Below, piece by piece: positions 363 through 14,184 of a stretch of 64,000 nucleotides of DNA. Position 1 is the first letter of the stretch; each line of letters begins with the position of its first letter. Under the pieces are notes generated by a model. It saw only the letters and a program-made list of their open reading frames with translations, had not been told where the DNA came from and ran no database searches. The stretch is from Ureaplasma sp. (GTDB lineage: Bacteria; Bacillota_I; Bacilli_A; Mycoplasmatales; Mycoplasmoidaceae), in contig JBNMHK010000001.1 of NCBI GenBank assembly GCA_050872725.1, positions 44,850 to 108,849 on the forward strand, in the 5' to 3' direction. The position numbers and the translations under genes are program-made.

Positions 363-1115
363 ATGGCTTCTATTCTAGAGACAATTAAAAATACAAAACA
401 ACCTAAAGATGGATTTTTAGCACCGAGTCAATTTAAAGAGATTTTTTTAAATGATGAGCTAGAAATTACTAATGAAGAAAATATTCCTTTAAGTCTTGTA
501 GGAATTGTTATTGACTATATGACAAGATTTTTATTGATTGGTGATGCAAGAAATTGTTTTAGAGTATCATTAGCAGGGGCGATGGCTGTCAATGAATTTG
601 ACAAAGCTAAGGAACTGTTAGACACTATCGATGGATTAAATGACCAATCTATTGTGGCAGCATGTAAATTAGTTGGTTATGACATTTGCTTTAGAGAACA
701 CCCAAGACTATTCAAACCAATTGAAACTATCAACCCAGATGCTCAAACCATTAGTAACATTAAAGCAATGATTATAAGATGTTCATCATTTGCTAAAGAA
801 TTTGGCCCAATCATTAAAGAAGGAATCACATTTGAAGGTGGATACACTGACAAAATTACAGCTGGGGATGGTGACTTTTTAACTGATGGAACAATGTGAG
901 ACATTAAACTGTCAGCTGATGGTATTGACACTAACAATACATTGCAATTATTAATTCACTACATTATGGGTAAACATTCAAATTATCCTGAATTACAAAA
1001 TGTTTATAAAATTGGTTTTTTCAATCCAAGATTGAACAGAATATATTTAATGGATGCTAGTGATATTGATCCTAATGTTATTAGTGAAGTTGAAAAAAGT
1101 GTAATTGGTTACTAA
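363..1115 (+). CDS. Hypothetical protein with PD-(D/E)XK (RecB-like) nuclease motif, 250 aa
   Basis: ORF 363..899 reads through TGA to TAA at 1113-1115. C-terminal half has GDGDFLTDGTMWDIK...LQLLIHY (D...DxK plus QLxxY). Confidence 0.6.
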
Positions 1116-4100: not shown

Positions 4101-4294
4101 AAATCTTCATGGTTAGTGTTACTAGGTAATTTTAAATATTCATAACCTTGTGCTTCTAATTGATTAATAAATTTTTGCTCTAATTCTTTTTCGCTTAGAG
4201 AATTAAAATTGTTATGATTTCTTTTCTTGAATTCTTCTATAACTGTTGGTTCATCGGATAATATTAAATTAGAAAAAGTTGATTTGTTATTCAT
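1112..4294 (-). CDS. hsdR: Type I restriction enzyme subunit R, 1060 aa
   Basis: Four track ORFs share one frame, joined by TGA=Trp. Motifs [51 protein letters not shown]; TAG at 1112-1114. Confidence 0.95.
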
Positions 4295-6500
4295 TGTTCT
4301 TCACTTTAAATGTTAATAATTTGTTGCTATAGTACTGGTATTGTTTATGACGTAATTCAATTTCTTTGCGAATGCCCTCATCTACCAAACTACTAAATTT
4401 GTCCAAAACTTGGACAATTTTTTCTTGAATTTCTAGAGGTGGGATGGGGATGGAAATTTCTAAAATTTTGCTCATGTCTGGGGTTTTAAATGGAACGCCT
4501 CTACCTCGATAAAAACTCTTAATCAAACTAATATTATTTCTTAAAAAATAATATATGTATTTTGTGTTGTACACACTACTATCACGTGTTGTACAAATCA
4601 AGTCTCCTGAATTAACGAATTTGCCATTTCAATATTCAATTTCTAGTGATTCACTTGTTAATGATGGTTGTAATGTAATAATTTCGCCTTCTGATAAATT
4701 TTCGCCTGCTAGTATTTCATTAGTTCAACCCTCAAAATTATTTGCAGATAACAATTTAACATTACCTGTTTTTAAATTTATATCTTTAAGCGTATTAGAT
4801 GAAATGGATTTAAATTTATTAAGTTTATCTTGTTTACTTTTATCTGTATTTTGAAATTTTTTATTTCAAATAGTTATTTTTCATAGTGGTAATCATTCAA
4901 CATCTTTGCCTTCAAAATCAAAAAGCTTATCAAGACAAAACTCATTAATTTGCTTATCTTCTAATTCATTAATTATTTCCCTAATTGCTTGTTTTGATTC
5001 TTGGTTTATCTTGGATAATTGATTAATTTCTTCATTTAATTGTTTTATATCAACTACTTCTTTTTCATCATTTTTTAAAATATATGAATCCACATGTAAG
5101 TCATAGTCATTGCTTGCAATTTTATCTTGGCTAACTAATCTAGATAACTTATCAACATCTTTTCTATCGTTATAAAGTTTGATGATTTCATCAATGTTTT
5201 CATCACTTAATTTTTTTTGATTAGTAACTTTAATAAACAAATCACTTGCATCAATAAATAATATGTCATTATCTTTTTTAGATTTTGATAATACTAGGAT
5301 ATTAGTAATTACTTGTTTACCATAAAATAAATTTTCTGGTAACCGAATTATTGTGTCAATAAAATTATTGTCTACCAAATATTTTCTAATTTTTTGTTCA
5401 GCGCCACCGCGATAAAAAATTCCTGGAAAACAAACAATTCCAGCTGTCCCAGACGTTTTTAATAAATATAAACTATGCATAATAACTGCAAGATCAGAAT
5501 TGCTTTTAGGTGCTAATATTCCTGCAGGACTATAACGTTCATCATTGATTAAAATTGGATTGCTATCACCTTCTCAGTCTTGATGATAAGGCGGATTAGA
5601 AACAATAATGTCATAGCGATTATCTAATGAATGTTTTGGGTTAGTTAGTGTATCACCACATTGAATGTCAAAATTACTACAATTAACATTATGTAAAAAC
5701 ATGTTCATGCGGCATAAATTGTATGTTGTATAAACATTTTCTTGCCCATAAAAATTGATGTTAGAATTTTTTAAAATTTTTAGTGGTTGTAATAATAGTG
5801 AACCTGACCTACACATTGGGTCATATACAGTTTGAATATCTTTCTTATCTTTAATAGCTAGTAAAGTTAGTAATTTACTAACCTCTTGTGGAGGATCAAA
5901 GAACTCTCTGTTTCGCTTACCTGATTTAGATGCATACATGTCAATAATGTATTCATATGCATCACCAAATATATCAATCTCGTCATCATCAAAATTACTA
6001 AGCTCAAAGCTAGCAATTGCAGCAATAATCTTAATTATTTTTTTATTTCTATTAGTGACATTTTCACCTAAATTATTTGATGACAAATTAATTCCAGTTA
6101 ATAAACCTATGATGTCTTGTTCATTTGCTTTGTTTAATGAACGTTCCTCAATATTTTTAAAAATATTAGTAATAACAACATTTAGGTCACTGGGGTTGGT
6201 TTTATATTTTTCATATACATTATTAAATAATTCTGATGGATAAATAAAGAAACCTTTAGAGTTAATACAATCTGAAATTATTTCATCTGAAATTTCATCA
6301 TCATTAAGTTTGGCATAATCAAAATCAACATTACCAGCAGCATGTTCATTTTTATTGAAATAATTAATAATATTTTCAGAAATATAGCGATAAAACAGAA
6401 ATCCTAGGACATAGAATTTCAACTCTGAAATGTCAACTGATCCTAATGATTTATTAAGAGTTTCTCAAATTTGACTAAATAATTCTTGTTTAGTTTTCAT
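4287..6500 (-). CDS. Fused type I methyltransferase HsdM plus single-TRD HsdS, 737 aa
   Basis: ATG 6500 to TAA 4287 in one frame with no TAA/TAG. HsdM motifs (YVLGFLFYRYISE, DPMCRSGSLL, NPPY) continue into an HsdS start (VEWLPLWKITIWNKKF) and one conserved helix (IPIPPLEIQEKIV...YQYYSNKLLTF). Confidence 0.85.
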
Positions 6501-6571
6501 AGCAAAAATACACAAATACTATTTTAACTAAATATTATTTGTTTTGTTTAAGCTAAAACTTTATACATTTA

Positions 6572-8737
6572 TTAAATAAGTTGAGCTTTTTTCTTTTTGA
6601 TTATTTCAACAACAATATCTCTATATTTTTTAATGAATTCCTCATTAATATTTTCCATAAAATAAGTTTTTGGAATTCGCTTTATACGTTCTGCATAATC
6701 TGATTTGATTTTATTTTCAATTATTGAATTGTAAATTGTATCAATCAGCTCATTATCATCCATAAATTCATTAATAAAGATAGCTATTTTTTGTTTTAAA
6801 TTATCATATTTTTTGTTTATTACTGCATCAATTAAATTCTTGTAATTTTTATTTTTACGATATGAACAATTGTTAATTAAATTCATTTGATCTTGATTAT
6901 ATTCGTTTAAATGAAATAAAACATCCTCAATGGTTTTGAATTCGTTACCAACATTAAATAATTGATTATAAGTTAGATAATTTATTTTGTTTTTGTCTAA
7001 CTTGTTCTCACTAATAAATTGGTCATTGTCACATATGACTAAAAAATGAAATTTATTTGTTTGTTCATGTAAAAATTTTAAGCTATTTAAAAAATTATGG
7101 TTAAATTTAAAATCATTTTTAACAATGAATTTGTCATCATTGTTGCCTCCAATAATTCTTTTTATTAAATTTTTATCAGTATTGGCTTCAACAAAAATAT
7201 GGTATTGTAAATCACTTAGTTTCTTTATTCCATAATGGATATTATATTTTTCTAATTCTCTATACTTATCTAATAAATTATTTTCTGAATTAAATTTTTT
7301 GTTAGTTACTAAATAAATTAATTTTGGAGTTGGATTATTAAAATCAGTAGTAGATATTCTTCCTACTGCTTGATATAATTTCTCAGGTGAATATTCATCA
7401 CATATATAAATTCCTAAATCTGCTTTATCTAAGGTTATACCAATAGCAGTGTCTTTTTGTAAAACTATTACATTAAGATCTTCATTTTGAAATTCATTAA
7501 TAATTTTTTGTCTTTCTTTTGAATTGACATTAGCATTTATATGTTTTGCATTAATACCATATTGTTTAAAATCATTAATAATATTGGTTTGAGCCTCTTT
7601 AAAATAACAAAAAACAACAATTTTTTTATCTTTATTTTTATTGATTAACTCAATTGCTTTTTCAATTTTTTTAGGCAAAAATAAATTATTATTTATAGGA
7701 TCATTTGTTATTCTAGGATCGTCAGATCATTTTTGTTTTTCTATAAAATTACGTTCCGACCTAATTTTCTTTTGTATATTTGGATATTCCTCAATTTCTA
7801 TTTCATCAATGTATAAGTAATTTAAAGGGTTATATTTATGACAATCATCAGGTCTGTATAAAAATTCATCTAACACTTTCCTTATAACATTAGGACGATT
7901 AATTTTATCTTCCGAACCATATTTTAATTGAATATGTTTGACGTCTGATTTATTTTTCCAATGTCTTTCAATAAATTCTTTGTCTAATAACTGAATAGCC
8001 TTAAAAATATCTAAAATTTTATGATTAACTGGTGTTGCAGATAATAAAATGAATAAATCAATATTAGTAAAATATTTCTTAATGATATCTTTAATTGATT
8101 TATGACGTTTATCACCAGTTTTTATAAAATTATGGAATTCATCAATAATAATATTTTTAAATAATTTAAATTTTTTAAATACTTCTGAATTATCTTTTTC
8201 TGATGAGAATCTTTTGGCAAATGTTTCTTCCGTAGTAATGATTATTTTGTAATCATTACTATTATCATTAATCTTGTCAAAAATATCATCATTCTTCTTA
8301 CTATGATAAATATAAACATTTTTTTCATTGTGATCTTTAAATGTTTTTTCAAATGTTTCAATCATATTTTTATCAACAAATAAAATAGTGTTTGCTTTAT
8401 TATTTAATATTGCTGTTATTGAAATATATGTTTTACCAAATCTAACCGGTAAAAATAAGCAAACTTTTCTATTTTTTAAAATATGGTTTAAACTATCTTT
8501 TTGATAATCATGTAATTTGTAGTATTCAATATTTTTATCATCAAAATTTTTATTTAAATATGAATTTTCACTAAATATTTCTAATAATTTAACTCTATTC
8601 TCATTTGTTAGAAAGAAGTATATGTGCTTATAATCTGGTGTTTCATAATAAAAATCTTCATCAAAATCAGATAGATTTATATTTTTGTATTCATCTGAAT
8701 TGATGTCAATTTTTTTTATGTATTTCCCATTGAGCAT
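6572..8737 (-). CDS. SF2 (SNF2/DExH-like) helicase with C-terminal OLD-like TOPRIM domain, 721 aa
   Basis: Two track ORFs joined through TGA 7727-7729. Helicase motifs LHDYQ, PVRFGKT, IIIDEFH, LSATP, KIVVFC, AIGITL, QAVGRI; then IFVEANTD, VICDND, TIEDV. Confidence 0.75.
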
Positions 8738-8828: not shown

Positions 8829-10909
8829 TTATATATCTTTATATTTTTCTTTGTATGCATCTAGATTTTGTAAGACATCACAAAGTTCATTGATCTTATC
8901 TTCATTCTTACTAATTCAATCAAAAATATTGTTATCTAGTGGTTTTTTTGAGCCCTAGATAACTGAAAATATCATGAGGTATCCAGCCTTTGAAATTTTC
9001 GTTAAACAATGCTTGCTCAATTTTTTCATAGGTCATATTGTCATTAAAATATTTAACTAAGATATTTTTAATTGTGTGGTTATTAATATCTAGTCTTTTA
9101 AAAACGTTAGCGTGACCAAATATGTCTTTCATACGTTGTTCTAACAAGTCTTCTTCCATAGCTGTTGAGTTCATCTGATTAGGTGTGGTACACAGAACCT
9201 TAAGATGGTCAAAGTTTCAAAGTAATTTAAACTTATGATACATTTGAATAGACCGTTGTTTAATGTCATGAATGGTCAATTAGACTTAGCAATAATTTCA
9301 TCATTGAATCTATACTCATCTTTTTGCATCGCTAACTTTTTCTCTGCAAAACTCTTGTTAGAATAACTAGAATTATACTCTTGAGGAGTTAAGGTTAAAT
9401 TGCCAATGGTGTGCTTATAAGTTTCTGCCATCTCAGGATCAACTTGTCAAGTGTTATCATAACTTTGGGGCAAGATATGCTCAACAGAAACATTACTAAA
9501 GTCATACTTAATTTTTGAATCCCCAGTTAGAATCCTAATTAAAAATAGCTTAGTAAACTCATTATTCTTATCATAAATACGGGTAGTTTCAAAACTTTGT
9601 TTAATTAAATTTTCACTAGGGACACTATATTTGACATCATGATTGACTTTAGAATTAGTTGGTAAATAAATGAGGTAGTAATATAATTGGGCATGAAAAT
9701 TTGCATTAAACATGTGTTTATTATTGCTCATGTCTTTTACAATTCTAGGGATGGCACGATTAACATCTTTATCATGGCGGTTAATGTCAAATTCCCGACT
9801 AATAAAGTAGTATTCTAAAATTTTGAATGCCTTTAGCAAATCTGATTTGTTGGTAATCTCAATTTTATTATTGATGGTGATATAAGTATATTGTTTCATG
9901 ATGTAAACTAACAAAACAACATACGAGTCAAATCTAGATTTAACAATGTCTAGTTCATGATTAGTAAAATCATGTAAATATTCATTTTCAGAAAAATACT
10001 TATAATATCTAGCAAATTCTAGGTATTCTTGTAATAATGTGTCAATTTTGTCCTCATACTGACTAGTTTTTAATTCATAGTAAGCCATAAAAATATGTTT
10101 ATTATCTTTACTAGAAACACAACCAGACACATAAGCTAAGGAATGTCTTAATAAGAAACTAGATTTTTTACCTAAATATGATGTGAGCTCATCTAATTGA
10201 CTATTCCAAGTGTCAATTTTATGTTCAATGTCTGCATCGTTTTCATGAACTAATGATAAAGAGGAAATCAAATCATTTTTAAACATGTCATAAGCAGTCA
10301 ATTCCACACCTGTGGAATTAATCTTAGAAAAAACAATATTTTCATTTAAGTTATTCATGATTTGAATTTGGGTGATGCTAGATTGATCTAATAACTTGGT
10401 GAAAAAAATGTTAATTTTGTCAACATTAAAATTATTCTCAAAATATGCTTTAATTTCCTTGTAATTAATGTAATAATTACTAGCTTCAGTTATACTGTCA
10501 CAAGGTTGTTGTTTAATGACATGGCGAATTAAATTTGATAACAAACTCTTGCTTTTGATGTTAAATAAGTTGAAATCAAAATTATCTAAAAGTTCAACCA
10601 CTTGATTCTTATTGTCAAGATCTAAATCCTTATGGCTATACAAGGCTAAAATAAGCAAAAAGATGGTAGTAATTCTTTGCTGCCCATCAATTACTAACTT
10701 AAATCTATAGTTGTATTTAATAATAGTGCCTAAAAAATGGCACTACCTGGGTTCAAATTAATATCGTCAAGCAAGTCTTGAATTAAGGTTTTAATTTGGG
10801 TTTTAAAAGTTCATACATATTGACGTTGAAAATAAGGAATTTTGATGTGTCTGTTTTCTTTTAAGAAATCTTTAATACTTAGACAATCAGCTTTAATATC
10901 TTTAATCAT
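8829..10909 (-). pseudogene. GmrSD-type (DUF262+DUF1524) restriction nuclease paralog with three frameshifts
   Basis: Starts MIKDIKADCLSIKDFLKEN...QRQYVW; has IDGQQR, FSKINSTG, EHILPQ, GNLTLT. Collinear with the 11011-13098 paralog only after correcting single-base indels near 10741, 9276 and 8945. Confidence 0.8.
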
Positions 10910-11010: not shown

Positions 11011-13098
11011 TTACATCGTAGTTTCACGATAGTTTTCTTTGTACCAGTCAATGTGTTTTAAAATATCACTGAGTTGTTTAATGTCAGCGTCATGGTCATA
11101 AATCCAAGCAAAGATGTCTTGGCTTAATGGTTTATGAATATCAAAATAAGCTAAGACAGCACATGGGATCCAACCCCTGTAGTTAGCATTAAACATGGTT
11201 TCTTCAATTTTCTCATAGCTATAATTTTCAGAGAAATACTTTACTAAGATACTTTTGATTGTCTTGTCATCAATTTTTTCTCGTCTAAAATTAGCTTCAT
11301 TTTTAAAGATGTACTCTAATTTTTGAGCAAGCAAATCATGCTCCACAGCAATAGAATCCAACATGAGATGTTCATTGACTTGAGCCTTAAGCTCTTTAAA
11401 ATCATAGATTTTAGTAAACTTGTCAAACATTTGGTTAGCCCGAGTTTTTATCTCATCAATTGTCCAAGTAGGCTTAGCAATGATTTCATTATTAAACCAA
11501 AATTCGTCATTTTGCATGGCCTGTTTTTTCTCACTGAAACTTTTATTAGAATAAACAGAATTGTACTCTTGGGGAGTTAAGGTTAAGTTCCCAATGGTAT
11601 GCATATAGTCTTCTGCTTGCTCAGGAGATATATCTCAATTAGCCTCATATTTTTGGGGCAAAATATGCTCCACTGAAGCATTGCTAAAGTCATACTTAAT
11701 TTTTGAATCCCCAGTTAATAACCTTATTAAAAATAACTTTGTGAACTCATTGCTGTTGTGATAAATTTTAGTGGATGCAAAGCCTTGCTTAATGGCAATT
11801 TCATTAGGAACACAATATTTGACTTCATGACCCATAGGTCTGTTTTGTGGCAAATAAATTAGGTTAGCATACAAACTAGCCACAAAGGCAGGATATTGGT
11901 CTTGTTGTTTAATAATATCTCCTAAGATTTTAGGGATTGCCCGAGTGATCTCTTTTTCATTTTTATCAGCAAACTCGCGGCTGATAATGTAGTACTCCAA
12001 AATTCTTAAAGCGGTCTTTAATTCATTAGGATGGGTAATGTAAATTTGGTTAGACTCATTAATATATGAGTACTGCTTCAGAATATGAATCAACAGCACA
12101 GCATAAGTGTTGAACCTAGAGATAATAATGATAAGTTCATTATTATTTAAATCACTTTTAAACTCATTTAGTTTAAGATATTTGTAATATCTAGCAAAGC
12201 TAAGATATTCTTTTAATAAGACATCTAAATTAACTAGATAATTAGTGTTCTTGAGTTCTAGATAGGCATTAAAGATTTTCTTGTTTTCTTTGTTGGGAAT
12301 GTTAAATGTTTTATAAGCAATAAAATGTCTTAACAGCAGGCTACTATCCTTGTCTAAGTAAGAAGTCAATTCATCCAGCTGATTATTTCATGTTTCAATT
12401 TTAGTATCAATAATATCTTTATCATCTTTATGTTCAAAAGATAATGAAGAAATGATGTCATTTTTGAACATATCATAAGCTGATAATTCTTCACCAGTGG
12501 AATTGATTTTAGAAAAGATAATGTTTTCATTTAAATTATTTTTTATCTCAATCTGGGTGATGATTGAGAAATTAAGTAATTTATTAAAAAAATGATTAAT
12601 TTTATCTTCATTAAAACGTGAATCAAGATACTTTTTAATCTCTACAAAATTGCAATAGTAATTGCTATTAGAAGTTGTATTATCTAGTGATGTATTTTTA
12701 ATGACATGATCTATGAGATTTTTAAGCAAGTTCTTGTTTTTGACATTGAATAAATCAAAGTCAAAAAATTCTAATAGATCCGTTATCGTTTTCTTGTTTT
12801 CATCATTTAAATGGGGATGCTGATAGATGGCAACAATCAATAAAAATATTGTTGTTATTCTTTGTTGACCATCAATTATTAATCTATATTTAGAATCATA
12901 TTTAACAATAATCGTCCCAAGAAAATAGAATGAACCAGGATTAACATTCATGTCCTCAGTTAAATCATCAATTAATGTTTTAATTTGAGTTTTAAATTTT
13001 CAGACATATTGGCGCTGAAAATAGGGGATTTGAATGTACTTATTTTCTTTTAATAATTCTTTAATAGATAAGCATTTTGAATCAATATCTCTTGACAT
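11011..13098 (-). CDS. GmrSD-type (DUF262+DUF1524) modification-dependent restriction endonuclease, 695 aa
   Basis: ATG 13098 and three track ORFs share one frame via TGA. Motifs IPYFQRQYVW, IDGQQR, FSKINSTG, SVEHILPQ, IGNLTLT..YNSVYSNKSFSEKK. Confidence 0.9.
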
Positions 13099-13165: not shown

Positions 13166-13666
13166 CTAGTGAAAATCACCATAATCTAAAGGGATTAGGA
13201 TGTGTAAATGTTTTGATTTATTATCATCTTTACAATGCTCATTATGACTTGCATTAAAGTGCTTATTAGGCTTCACATGAAATAAATATGACACCAATCT
13301 TTTTTGATCCTTGTTTTTATCACATGGAATTTTAGTTTTAACTATCATGTAATCAATAAGTACTTTTTCATACATTTGTTGTATAGCATCTTTATATTTT
13401 TGAACTTTACCAAGCTTGGCATATTTTCCTTTAATCTTAGGTTCAAGACCTGTGTAAAACAAGCAACTGTTGTCATCGTTGCTTGTTAATTTGTTATGAA
13501 ATACAATAAACTCATTATCTTTACATGAATGTTTTAATTCATTGTATTTATTGTGTAAAGCAATAAAAGACTTTAAGATTTCAAAATTATTTTCAAAACT
13601 TTTGGAAATGCTTCTAGGGTCAATATTTAAAATTAAAAGTTCTGACTCAAAGTTTATTTCAAGCAT
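13166..13666 (-). CDS. Hypothetical protein, putative toxin paired with Panacea antitoxin, 166 aa
   Basis: Starts 3 nt after the DUF4065 stop. No family recognised; ends KRLVSYLF...HILIPLDYGDFH. Confidence 0.55.
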   Translation of the reverse strand: MLEINFESELLILNIDPRSISKSFENNFEILKSFIALHNKYNELKHSCKDNEFIVFHNKLTSNDDNSCLFYTGLEPKIKGKYAKLGKVQKYKDAIQQMYEKVLIDYMIVKTKIPCDKNKDQKRLVSYLFHVKPNKHFNASHNEHCKDDNKSKHLHILIPLDYGDFH

Positions 13667-13669
13667 ATA

Positions 13670-14098
13670 TTAAAAAAAGATTCTGGCAAATTCATCTTGA
13701 ATTTCTTTAGCAGAAATTACTTTATCTTTCTTTTCATAATGATTTTTTCATGAATCTAATGTGTGAGTGTAATCAACTAATTCTCAAACTGAAAATCCCA
13801 AAAGTTTAATGATCATTTTTTTTAATTGATTTTTTTGATCAATGCTTAATTGGTCAATATCAATAGGTTTAACCAACTCTAGATTATGACGATAATTTGT
13901 TTCAACAGGACCATATTTTCATGCTTCAAAATTGGGTTGTCACAATTCAATGTTGTAATGGTTATAAAATCTACCATAGATTAAAAACAACATTTTGTGC
14001 ATTTGTAATTCTGTTACTATGCTAGATTCTTCTGTCCCTTCACTTAATCCAGCATTTACTTCATTAATGTATTGAACTATATCTTTATTTTCATGCAT
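13670..14098 (-). CDS. Panacea/DUF4065 (SocA-like) antitoxin, 142 aa
   Basis: With TGA=Trp: ELQMHKMLFLIYGRFY..., FEAWKYGPVE, SVWELVDYTH..DSWK, which are DUF4065 hallmarks. AGGTG RBS before ATG 14098. Confidence 0.85.
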
Positions 14099-14184
14099 TA
14101 TAACAACACCTAACTTTCTATTGGCACTCTCTAAAATCATCTTCCATAATGAAGATATTCTTATTCATCATCACTGACATTAAA

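Follow-up and report, generated by a model that had tools for sequence, protein, structure and literature searches.

A candidate one-gene defence nuclease in Ureaplasma: an SNF2-like motor joined to a predicted OLD-like TOPRIM domain

Anti-phage immunity repeatedly makes use of pairs consisting of a nucleoside triphosphatase (NTPase) and a nuclease. To my knowledge, nucleases of the OLD-type TOPRIM class have so far been found together with ABC ATPases (as in OLD, GajA and PARIS), with reverse transcriptases (in retrons) or with a separate helicase (Gabija, Toprim-TA). The gene considered in this study, here called P0001, lies on the reverse strand at positions 6572 to 8737 of a 64,000-nucleotide stretch of Ureaplasma sp. 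contig JBNMHK010000001.1 (the whole stretch is referred to below as the window), and an earlier note, made from the sequence alone, had proposed that it encodes a superfamily 2 (SF2) helicase fused to an OLD-type nuclease domain. The account I favor, with reasonable but not strong confidence, is that the gene specifies a stand-alone, single-chain ATP-dependent nuclease, in which an SNF2 translocase is joined to an OLD-like TOPRIM nuclease, and that it serves in accessory defence.

By analogy, the closest concept to such a fusion is Toprim-TA, a two-gene system comprising a Toprim nuclease and an SF2-helicase NTPase, which provides E. coli with a broad but weak defence against phages (bioRxiv 10.1101/2025.07.10.664194). 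The present protein would likewise pair a nuclease of the Toprim/OLD type with an NTPase resembling SF2 helicases, a likeness of description, but within one fused chain instead of a two-gene operon. The earlier note had found the architecture unrecognizable among named systems. That much stands, insofar as no named system was matched, but the concept is less new than was implied, since defence by a two-gene combination of Toprim and SF2 helicase has already been demonstrated.

Architecture of the predicted protein

The gene is a single open reading frame of 721 amino acids under translation table 4, whereas under table 11 one in-frame TGA (W337) cuts it into pieces of 336 and 368 amino acids. 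Because all the neighboring genes, and not this one alone, become long open reading frames once TGA is read as Trp, the genome can be taken to be of the Mollicutes type. The GC content ranges from 22 to 35% across the window. A full-length AlphaFold2 (AF2) model (mean predicted local distance difference test score, pLDDT, 83.0; predicted template-modelling score, pTM, 0.77) and the evidence named in each line divide the gene as follows.

6572..8737, reverse strand: whole gene, 721 codons plus stop, with TGA read as Trp at W337
8570..8737, reverse strand: small N-terminal beta/alpha domain, residues 1-56 (AF2 secondary structure)
7343..8524, reverse strand: SNF2-like SF2 ATPase/translocase core, residues ~72-465 (Pfam, motifs, Foldseek, PHROG)
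6953..7216, reverse strand: predicted TOPRIM core, residues ~508-595 (AF2, hhalign, fold matches, invariant acidic residues)
6575..6940, reverse strand: predicted C-terminal helical domain, residues ~600-721 (AF2, structural alignments to OLD C-terminal regions)

The N-terminal domain (residues 1-56) has no match in Pfam, and residues 57-71 form a linker of low AF2 confidence.

The motor is SNF2-like by its modelled fold and has all the ATPase motifs. Between residues 78 and 461 Pfam recognizes DEAD (2.9e-16) and Helicase_C (3.9e-15), and the full set of SF2 motifs described in the earlier note was found where it had been placed, in a frame that is intact under code 4. The first RecA lobe carries the Walker A sequence PVRFGKT (residues 97-103, window 8429-8449, with GKT at 101-103), DEFH (residues 199-202, window 8132-8143) and SAT (residues 233-235), and the second carries QAVGR, of the form QAxGR (residues 456-460, window 7358-7372). 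Between them the core accommodates a helical/beta insertion (residues 241-355). Motifs I, II (DExH), III and VI are all intact and invariant across the family, the invariant residues being G101, K102, D199, E200, H202, S233, A234, Q456, G459 and R460 in the 11 full-length members (35-79% identity).

That the motor should be called SNF2-like, as the note had also supposed, follows from the SNF2 ATPases at the head of its Foldseek list and from its closest relatives in sequence. When the full-length model was compared with the PDB, the top matches were nearly all SNF2-family ATPases (E 2e-12 to 4e-10, template-modelling (TM) score by target up to 0.73), led by ALC1 (7enn_K, 2.1e-12) and the Sulfolobus SWI2/SNF2 core (1z63_A, 5.5e-12), with CHD1, ISWI/SNF2h, INO80, Rad54, Mot1 and CSB among the dozens of others; XPB/Ssl2 enters only from rank 31. 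In other genomes, the closest helicases are simple SNF2-rel_dom proteins that lack the C-terminal extension, one of them a Lactobacillus protein of 653 amino acids. As to the family model itself (PF00176, SNF2-rel_dom), hmmscan reports only DEAD and Helicase_C, and a precomputed table gives PF00176 for P0001 and for a second protein, P0003. NCBIfam and PADLOC yield sub-threshold matches, restricted to the helicase core, to DbpA, DpdE, RecQ, XPB and DrmD. The best PADLOC match is PbeA (2e-14), confined to residues 54-461, and the weaker ones, ZorD (1e-5), DpdE/F and DrmD, all fall within the same helicase core (residues ~54-461).

Within the order, the closest helicase relative is a stand-alone SNF2-type protein of 544 amino acids, without a nuclease domain, which is present in one or two copies per genome in a Mollicutes genus with larger genomes (L014:385-2019; also L015 to L018).

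The remainder of the protein is invisible to family models: the C-terminal 257 amino acids (residues 465-721) have no match in Pfam (E<=10), NCBIfam (E<=1) or PHROGs (E<=0.1). Nonetheless, residues ~508-721 are TOPRIM-like, as judged by the modelled fold and by profile comparison. A separate AF2 model of the C-terminal part, built on an alignment of 10 sequences (pLDDT 83.6, and above 90 over most of fragment residues 50-250), presents a beta-alpha-beta-alpha-beta-alpha-beta core followed by a domain of six helices. Strand beta1 (511-516) is followed by E517 and D521, strand beta3 (563-569) by D570-N-D572, and beta4 spans 587-589. This placement, a glutamate directly after beta1 and a DxD directly after beta3, is how PMC6755086 defines the TOPRIM arrangement. 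In the DNA, E517 of the motif VEANTD is encoded at window 7187-7189, D570 and D572 of ICDND at 7022-7030, and E604 of TIED at 6926-6928. The helical domain opens with [T/N]602-I-E604 at the N-terminus of the first helix after the TOPRIM core and holds an invariant lysine, K690, in the motif KSYFM.

Structural neighbors of this model are consistent with the TOPRIM fold that the note had predicted. The best Foldseek matches in the PDB are the C-terminal regions of OLD proteins from Xanthomonas and Burkholderia (E 0.04-0.07, probability 0.63-0.89), and a small TOPRIM protein of B. stearothermophilus is matched with probability 0.96; the fold matches include 2fcj/2i5r, 6nk8, 6p74 and GajA. A shape search of the ESM Atlas gave a clearer picture than Foldseek: the nearest clusters are mainly OLD-type proteins annotated as 'ATP-dependent nuclease', combining AAA_21/AAA_15 with OLD-like_TOPRIM (TM 0.48-0.52, 170-189 residues aligned), and further neighbors belong to DUF4435, HEPN_Toprim_N and DUF4276. 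Structural alignments to OLD proteins span 130-189 residues and so run past the TOPRIM core into the helical domain. The viral structure library BFVD gave no match at E<=0.001, and the family profile gave none at E<=10 against PDB sequences. Neighbors found with a language model (score 0.84) carry OLD-like_TOPRIM or Toprim_2 on a minority of their members, which is below the level at which they would count and serves as a lead only.

For a comparison at the level of sequence, a profile was made by aligning 25 OLD C-terminal regions, taken from PF20469 matches in related genomes, and the C-terminal family was compared to it by hhalign. The score was 39 (P 3.5e-5, probability 72%), and the TOPRIM core by itself reached a probability of 86% (P 5e-6). 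The alignment sets 'ES.SD' on the OLD consensus 'VEGxSE' and 'CDND' on 'D.D'. By comparison, reversing the query or the template gave scores of 13.8-14.6, 30 column-shuffled templates gave at most 13.3, and a profile of 25 receiver domains gave 14 (probability <1%). The detectable link to OLD in sequence is confined to the core running from the glutamate to the DxD.

Seven residues of the domain, E517, D521, D570, D572, K579, E604 and K690, are invariant in the 11 full-length members. The best guide to their roles is BpOLD of B. pseudomallei, whose catalytic set consists of E400, E404 (at i+4, metal B), D455xD457, T506xE508 and K562, with T506xE508 borne by the helical domain's first helix and K562 coming from a later one (PMC6755086). 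E517 corresponds to E400 and D570xD572 to D455xD457, while D521 (i+4), aligned with the last E of VEGxSE, corresponds to E404. By position, [T/N]-I-E604 may be the counterpart of T506xE508, and the invariant lysines (K579, K690) would be available for the role of K562. The motifs named in the earlier note are thus where it put them and exceed chance, given that the five acidic residues are invariant and that the OLD profile scores far above its nulls. Its claim of an OLD catalytic pattern holds for E/ExxxD and DxD, which are in OLD register, and is without sequence support for the third motif, the equivalence of E604.

Distribution and genomic setting

This is a rare, patchily distributed and dispensable family without a conserved partner gene, and its members recur beside restriction or defence genes. 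An index of 5.8 billion proteins contains 10 relatives. An exhaustive search of 1.84 billion representatives with a hidden Markov model of the C-terminal domain returned 11 matches, all of them the helicase-fused family itself or its fragments, and among those representatives it brought up no GajA, no AriB and no stand-alone form of the TOPRIM domain. The helicase half, used alone against the 5.8 billion proteins (E<=1e-8), retrieved its own family and nothing else, so that no split form came to light. When the full protein served as query, the gene was found in just one of the 298 genomes scored in its order, that of the window, the others giving matches to the helicase core only, at 1e-12 or weaker. 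A contig scan of species-representative genomes found no true member, only remote SNF2 helicases in Lactobacillus and Clostridium. Since every recovered locus requires TGA to be read as Trp, the family appears confined to Mollicutes that use code 4.

The window itself comes from a metagenome-assembled genome of 605 kb in 17 contigs, 89% complete. The gene was found in four DNA metagenome runs, all of a single study, and the list of sequencing runs that hold it includes no RNA run. A Shine-Dalgarno-like box, GAGG, lies 7 nucleotides 5' of the ATG. Scans for promoters and terminators gave no more sites than in shuffled sequence.

The neighbors reported in the earlier note were recovered: the gene is flanked upstream by two GmrSD genes and downstream by a fusion of HsdM and HsdS, followed by HsdR. 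It is on the same strand as the hsdM-S fusion, 56 bp away. Further upstream lie a Panacea module and a tRNA operon. The same island is present in a sister strain (L055), where the orthologue (L055:782-2960) is split into 420 and 324 amino acids by a 1-nucleotide insertion, corresponding to window ~7480-7520, that makes a run of A9, at residue ~407, out of the window's AAAAGAAAG. Since the frameshift is carried by two independent samples, it could represent slipped-strand on/off switching or early decay. The sister strain keeps hsdMS and hsdR intact despite the frameshift in its helicase gene.

The other loci have different surroundings. In L001, a Dcm gene with HNH is ~2.4 kb away and GmrSD ~6.2 kb; in L054, fragments of an N6_N4 methyltransferase lie ~0.9 kb downstream; and in L057, a protein of 456 amino acids that matches the PADLOC candidate defence family PDC-S61 (6.4e-31; positions 4129-5499, reverse strand) lies ~1.8 kb from the homologue P0010. 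Taken together, restriction-modification (R-M), GmrSD or candidate defence genes occur in four of the five contexts. Pairwise comparison of the homologues' neighbors found none shared between lineages. Because there is no shared neighbor and there are no stand-alone helicase relatives, the gene is regarded as a dispensable accessory element, complete in itself, with a tendency to lie among genes for restriction and defence.

Several features of these neighborhoods may be recorded in their own right. The product of the hsdM-S fusion (window 4287-6515, reverse strand, 742 amino acids) joins HsdM (N6_Mtase, 7e-102) to half of an HsdS (Methylase_S, residues 629-720); HsdM reads without a stop into a specificity module with a single target recognition domain, and the end of the gene overlaps the start of hsdR. 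The sister strain has the same fusion, of 738 amino acids. Of the two GmrSD copies, the one adjoining the gene (window 8932-10658, reverse strand) looks damaged: it consists of a frame of 505 amino acids with a weak, partial GmrSD_N match (E 0.0013), overlapped by a frame of 115 amino acids in another register that extends its 3' end. The upstream copy (window 11011-13098, 695 amino acids) is intact. The Panacea module (window 13166-14140, reverse strand) consists of a SocA/Panacea-domain protein (156 amino acids, 2.3e-9) and a protein of 166 amino acids without a family; the two may form a toxin-antitoxin pair, located at the edge of the island that is nearer the tRNA operon. Converging on hsdR is a frame of 250 amino acids with no Pfam family (window 363-1115, forward strand), whose counterpart in the sister strain has the same length and position (L055:8421-9173). 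In L057, a gene of 423 amino acids without a family stands between P0010 and the gene for the PDC-S61 protein.

Predicted function and its alternatives

An anti-phage function is suggested by the genomic context, and the gene is probably a one-gene defence system that cuts DNA. SNF2 ATPases are translocases of duplex DNA, and the presence of DNA- and nucleosome-bound structures among the Foldseek matches is consistent with that activity. In the proposed mechanism, the predicted SNF2 motor would load onto foreign duplex DNA and track along it using ATP, and the putative TOPRIM site would nick or cleave that DNA once translocation is engaged or stalled. The OLD-like nuclease, with its helical domain, is probably of the two-metal type, metal A being held, putatively, by E517 together with D570/D572 and metal B by D521 and E604. 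The motor may thus fill the regulatory NTPase role that an ABC ATPase holds in OLD, GajA and PARIS, and translocation may deliver or license the nuclease, by analogy with ZorD and with restriction enzymes of type I/ISP. The outcome would be an accessory defence of Mollicutes against phages or other mobile elements, accessory because the gene is found in 1 of 298 genomes of its order, because 1.84e9 representatives gave only 11 matches and because the sister orthologue is frameshifted.

A number of results weigh against this account. No TOPRIM model in Pfam, PF20469 included, matches the C-terminal domain even at E<=10, and the HMMER search of 1.84e9 representatives with the C-terminal profile retrieved no OLD protein. 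The segments that follow the DxD score at the null level (12.2) in hhalign against OLD, and since they have no detectable similarity to OLD, the equivalents proposed for E604 and the catalytic lysine are positional only. Several OLD-like TOPRIM effectors cut tRNA, not DNA. The helicase core matches a family of phage DNA helicases, phrog_62 (5e-39), and also phrog_16, and the former match makes an origin in a mobile element, or a function on behalf of one, possible. Finally, in one of the five contexts, L002, the neighbors are unannotated genes without a recognizable defence gene.

The alternative that survives best, unlikely as I consider it, keeps the architecture but makes the TOPRIM domain an RNase, such as a nuclease of tRNA anticodons, which would abort infection, the SNF2 motor serving only to sense foreign or damaged DNA. 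This logic is the one reported for PARIS AriB and proposed for P2 Old, and it likely applies to RT-TOPRIM retrons: PARIS AriB cuts host tRNA (PMC12839542), and a 2026 preprint describes P2 OLD as an abortive tRNase. The arrangement of E, E+4, DxD and helix-borne E is common to OLD, RNase M5 and DnaG (PMC6755086), and clusters of DUF4435 (AriB-type) and HEPN_Toprim_N proteins are among the Atlas neighbors. (In 301 genomes, just two good DUF4435 sequences of the AriB type were found, too few for a profile comparison.) However, SNF2 motors work on duplex DNA, and an attached nuclease is most simply thought of as delivered there, as in type I/ISP enzymes and ZorD. Moreover, the nearest solved matches that align at greatest length are DNA-cutting regions of OLD/GajA from classes 1 and 2.

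Slightly less likely still is that the protein has no part in immunity but acts in DNA metabolism, serving the host or a mobile element in repair, recombination, the restart of replication or the maintenance of the element. The phrog_62 and phrog_16 matches noted above fit such a role, as do the metabolic or unannotated neighbors at L002 and L054 and the position of the island next to a tRNA operon, a typical site of integration; primases, RecR and topoisomerases are other proteins with TOPRIM domains (PMC6755086). On the other hand, the loci read show no flanking genes for an integrase, for replication or for phage structure, and the protein has neither the N-terminal polymerase subdomain of DnaG nor the tyrosine domain of topoisomerases. 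A distribution of one genome in 298, with a frameshifted orthologue, argues against housekeeping, and the frequency of R-M, GmrSD or candidate defence genes in its surroundings argues for defence.

It is improbable that the C-terminal domain is instead a non-catalytic regulatory alpha/beta domain of the receiver or flavodoxin type, the protein then being a plain regulated SNF2 helicase. The silence of the TOPRIM Pfam models and the weakness of the Foldseek E-values (0.04 or worse) leave room for that idea. TOPRIM is nevertheless preferred, because the OLD profile scores 38-39, far from its controls, and the receiver profile only at null. Furthermore, the invariant residues are an E after beta1 and a DxD after beta3, not the DD after beta1 and single D after beta3 of receivers; alignments to receivers extend over no more than 100 residues, as compared to the 130-189 for OLD that include the helical domain; and the Atlas neighbors are mainly of the OLD, DUF4435 or Toprim families. 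Least probable of all is an accessory subunit of the adjoining type I R-M system, a reading encouraged by the co-oriented, adjoining hsdMS-hsdR genes of the window and the sister strain and by the lack of a terminator-like site before the hsdM-S fusion, but opposed by the restriction of that adjacency to one lineage (P0011, P0004, P0010 and P0015 have no adjoining type I genes) and by the intact hsdMS/hsdR that accompany the frameshifted gene in L055.

A TOPRIM nuclease and an SNF2 translocase in a single chain would extend the known modularity of OLD-type nucleases and offer a simple, one-protein system in which to study the gating that a DNA motor imposes on a TOPRIM nuclease. It would also lengthen the very short list of defence genes in Mollicutes, whose phage biology is poorly explored. 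A larger claim I put forward tentatively, giving it somewhat less credence than the function itself: that the gene is the founding example of an autonomous one-gene immunity restricted to Mollicutes, in which an SNF2 translocase replaces the ABC ATPase that controls an OLD-type two-metal TOPRIM nuclease. If that is true, the OLD nuclease module would be portable between unrelated classes of motor, and bacteria with minimal genomes would own a small weapon, similar to restriction, that works without a methyltransferase. The immediate impact is modest, since the family is rare and its function so far predicted.

Comparison with described systems

The present protein is most like the OLD proteins, both class 1 (P2 Old and TsOLD, 6P74) and class 2 (GajA and BpOLD, 6NK8). 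In common with them it has an N-terminal NTPase and a putative nuclease in one chain, a C-terminal TOPRIM-like core with a helical domain, the Toprim glutamate, an acidic residue four positions on and the DxD, in the same register by profile alignment, and it shares their life in defence islands. OLD proteins are also the best or near-best structural neighbors of its C-terminal domain. It differs in that the NTPase is an SNF2-type SF2 motor rather than an ABC ATPase (there is no match to AAA_15, AAA_21 or AAA_23), in the lack of sequence similarity in the helical domain and in having no UvrD-like partner such as GajB. PF20469 (OLD-like_TOPRIM), which does give matches in control genomes, gives none anywhere in the genome of the window. 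With the defining ABC ATPase absent and PF20469 failing to match, the protein is not a member of the OLD family.

Nor is it Gabija, PbeA or ZorD, whose nucleases, partners or helicase classes differ. Gabija has an ABC ATPase and, as a separate gene (GajB), a UvrD-like helicase of superfamily 1, whereas the helicase here is SF2/SNF2 and fused. ZorD (SNF2 with an Mrr-like nuclease) and PbeA (an HKD/phospholipase D (PLD) nuclease with SF2) resemble the protein in the covalent union of an SF2 translocase with a nuclease, and the BREX-related fusions of a helicase with PD-(D/E)XK and the R subunits of type ISP and type I enzymes resemble it in linking an ATP-driven SF2 motor to a nuclease. However, the predicted nuclease here is TOPRIM, as opposed to Mrr/PD-(D/E)XK or HKD, and the partner genes of those systems (ZorABC, PbeBCD, a methyltransferase) are not conserved. 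Unlike PbeABCD, moreover, there is no PLD domain, and the window has no neighboring CxC ABC ATPase or DndE.

The effectors of PARIS (AriB, DUF4435) and of RT-TOPRIM retrons (Eco2/Ec67) offer a third comparison, each an OLD-like TOPRIM effector apart from, or attached to, a sensor that is not an ABC ATPase, and they resemble the C-terminal domain in shape searches of the Atlas and the PDB. Their target is tRNA, however, and it is an ABC ATPase or a reverse transcriptase that releases or activates them, with no helicase in the chain. The earlier note had asked whether the gene belongs to a system already described: searches of PADLOC, Pfam, NCBIfam and the literature returned no full-length match, and the literature searched on SNF2 with Toprim in defence yielded no example in a single chain. 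The gene is therefore best regarded as a new combination of domains on the known theme of helicase/NTPase-nuclease defence.

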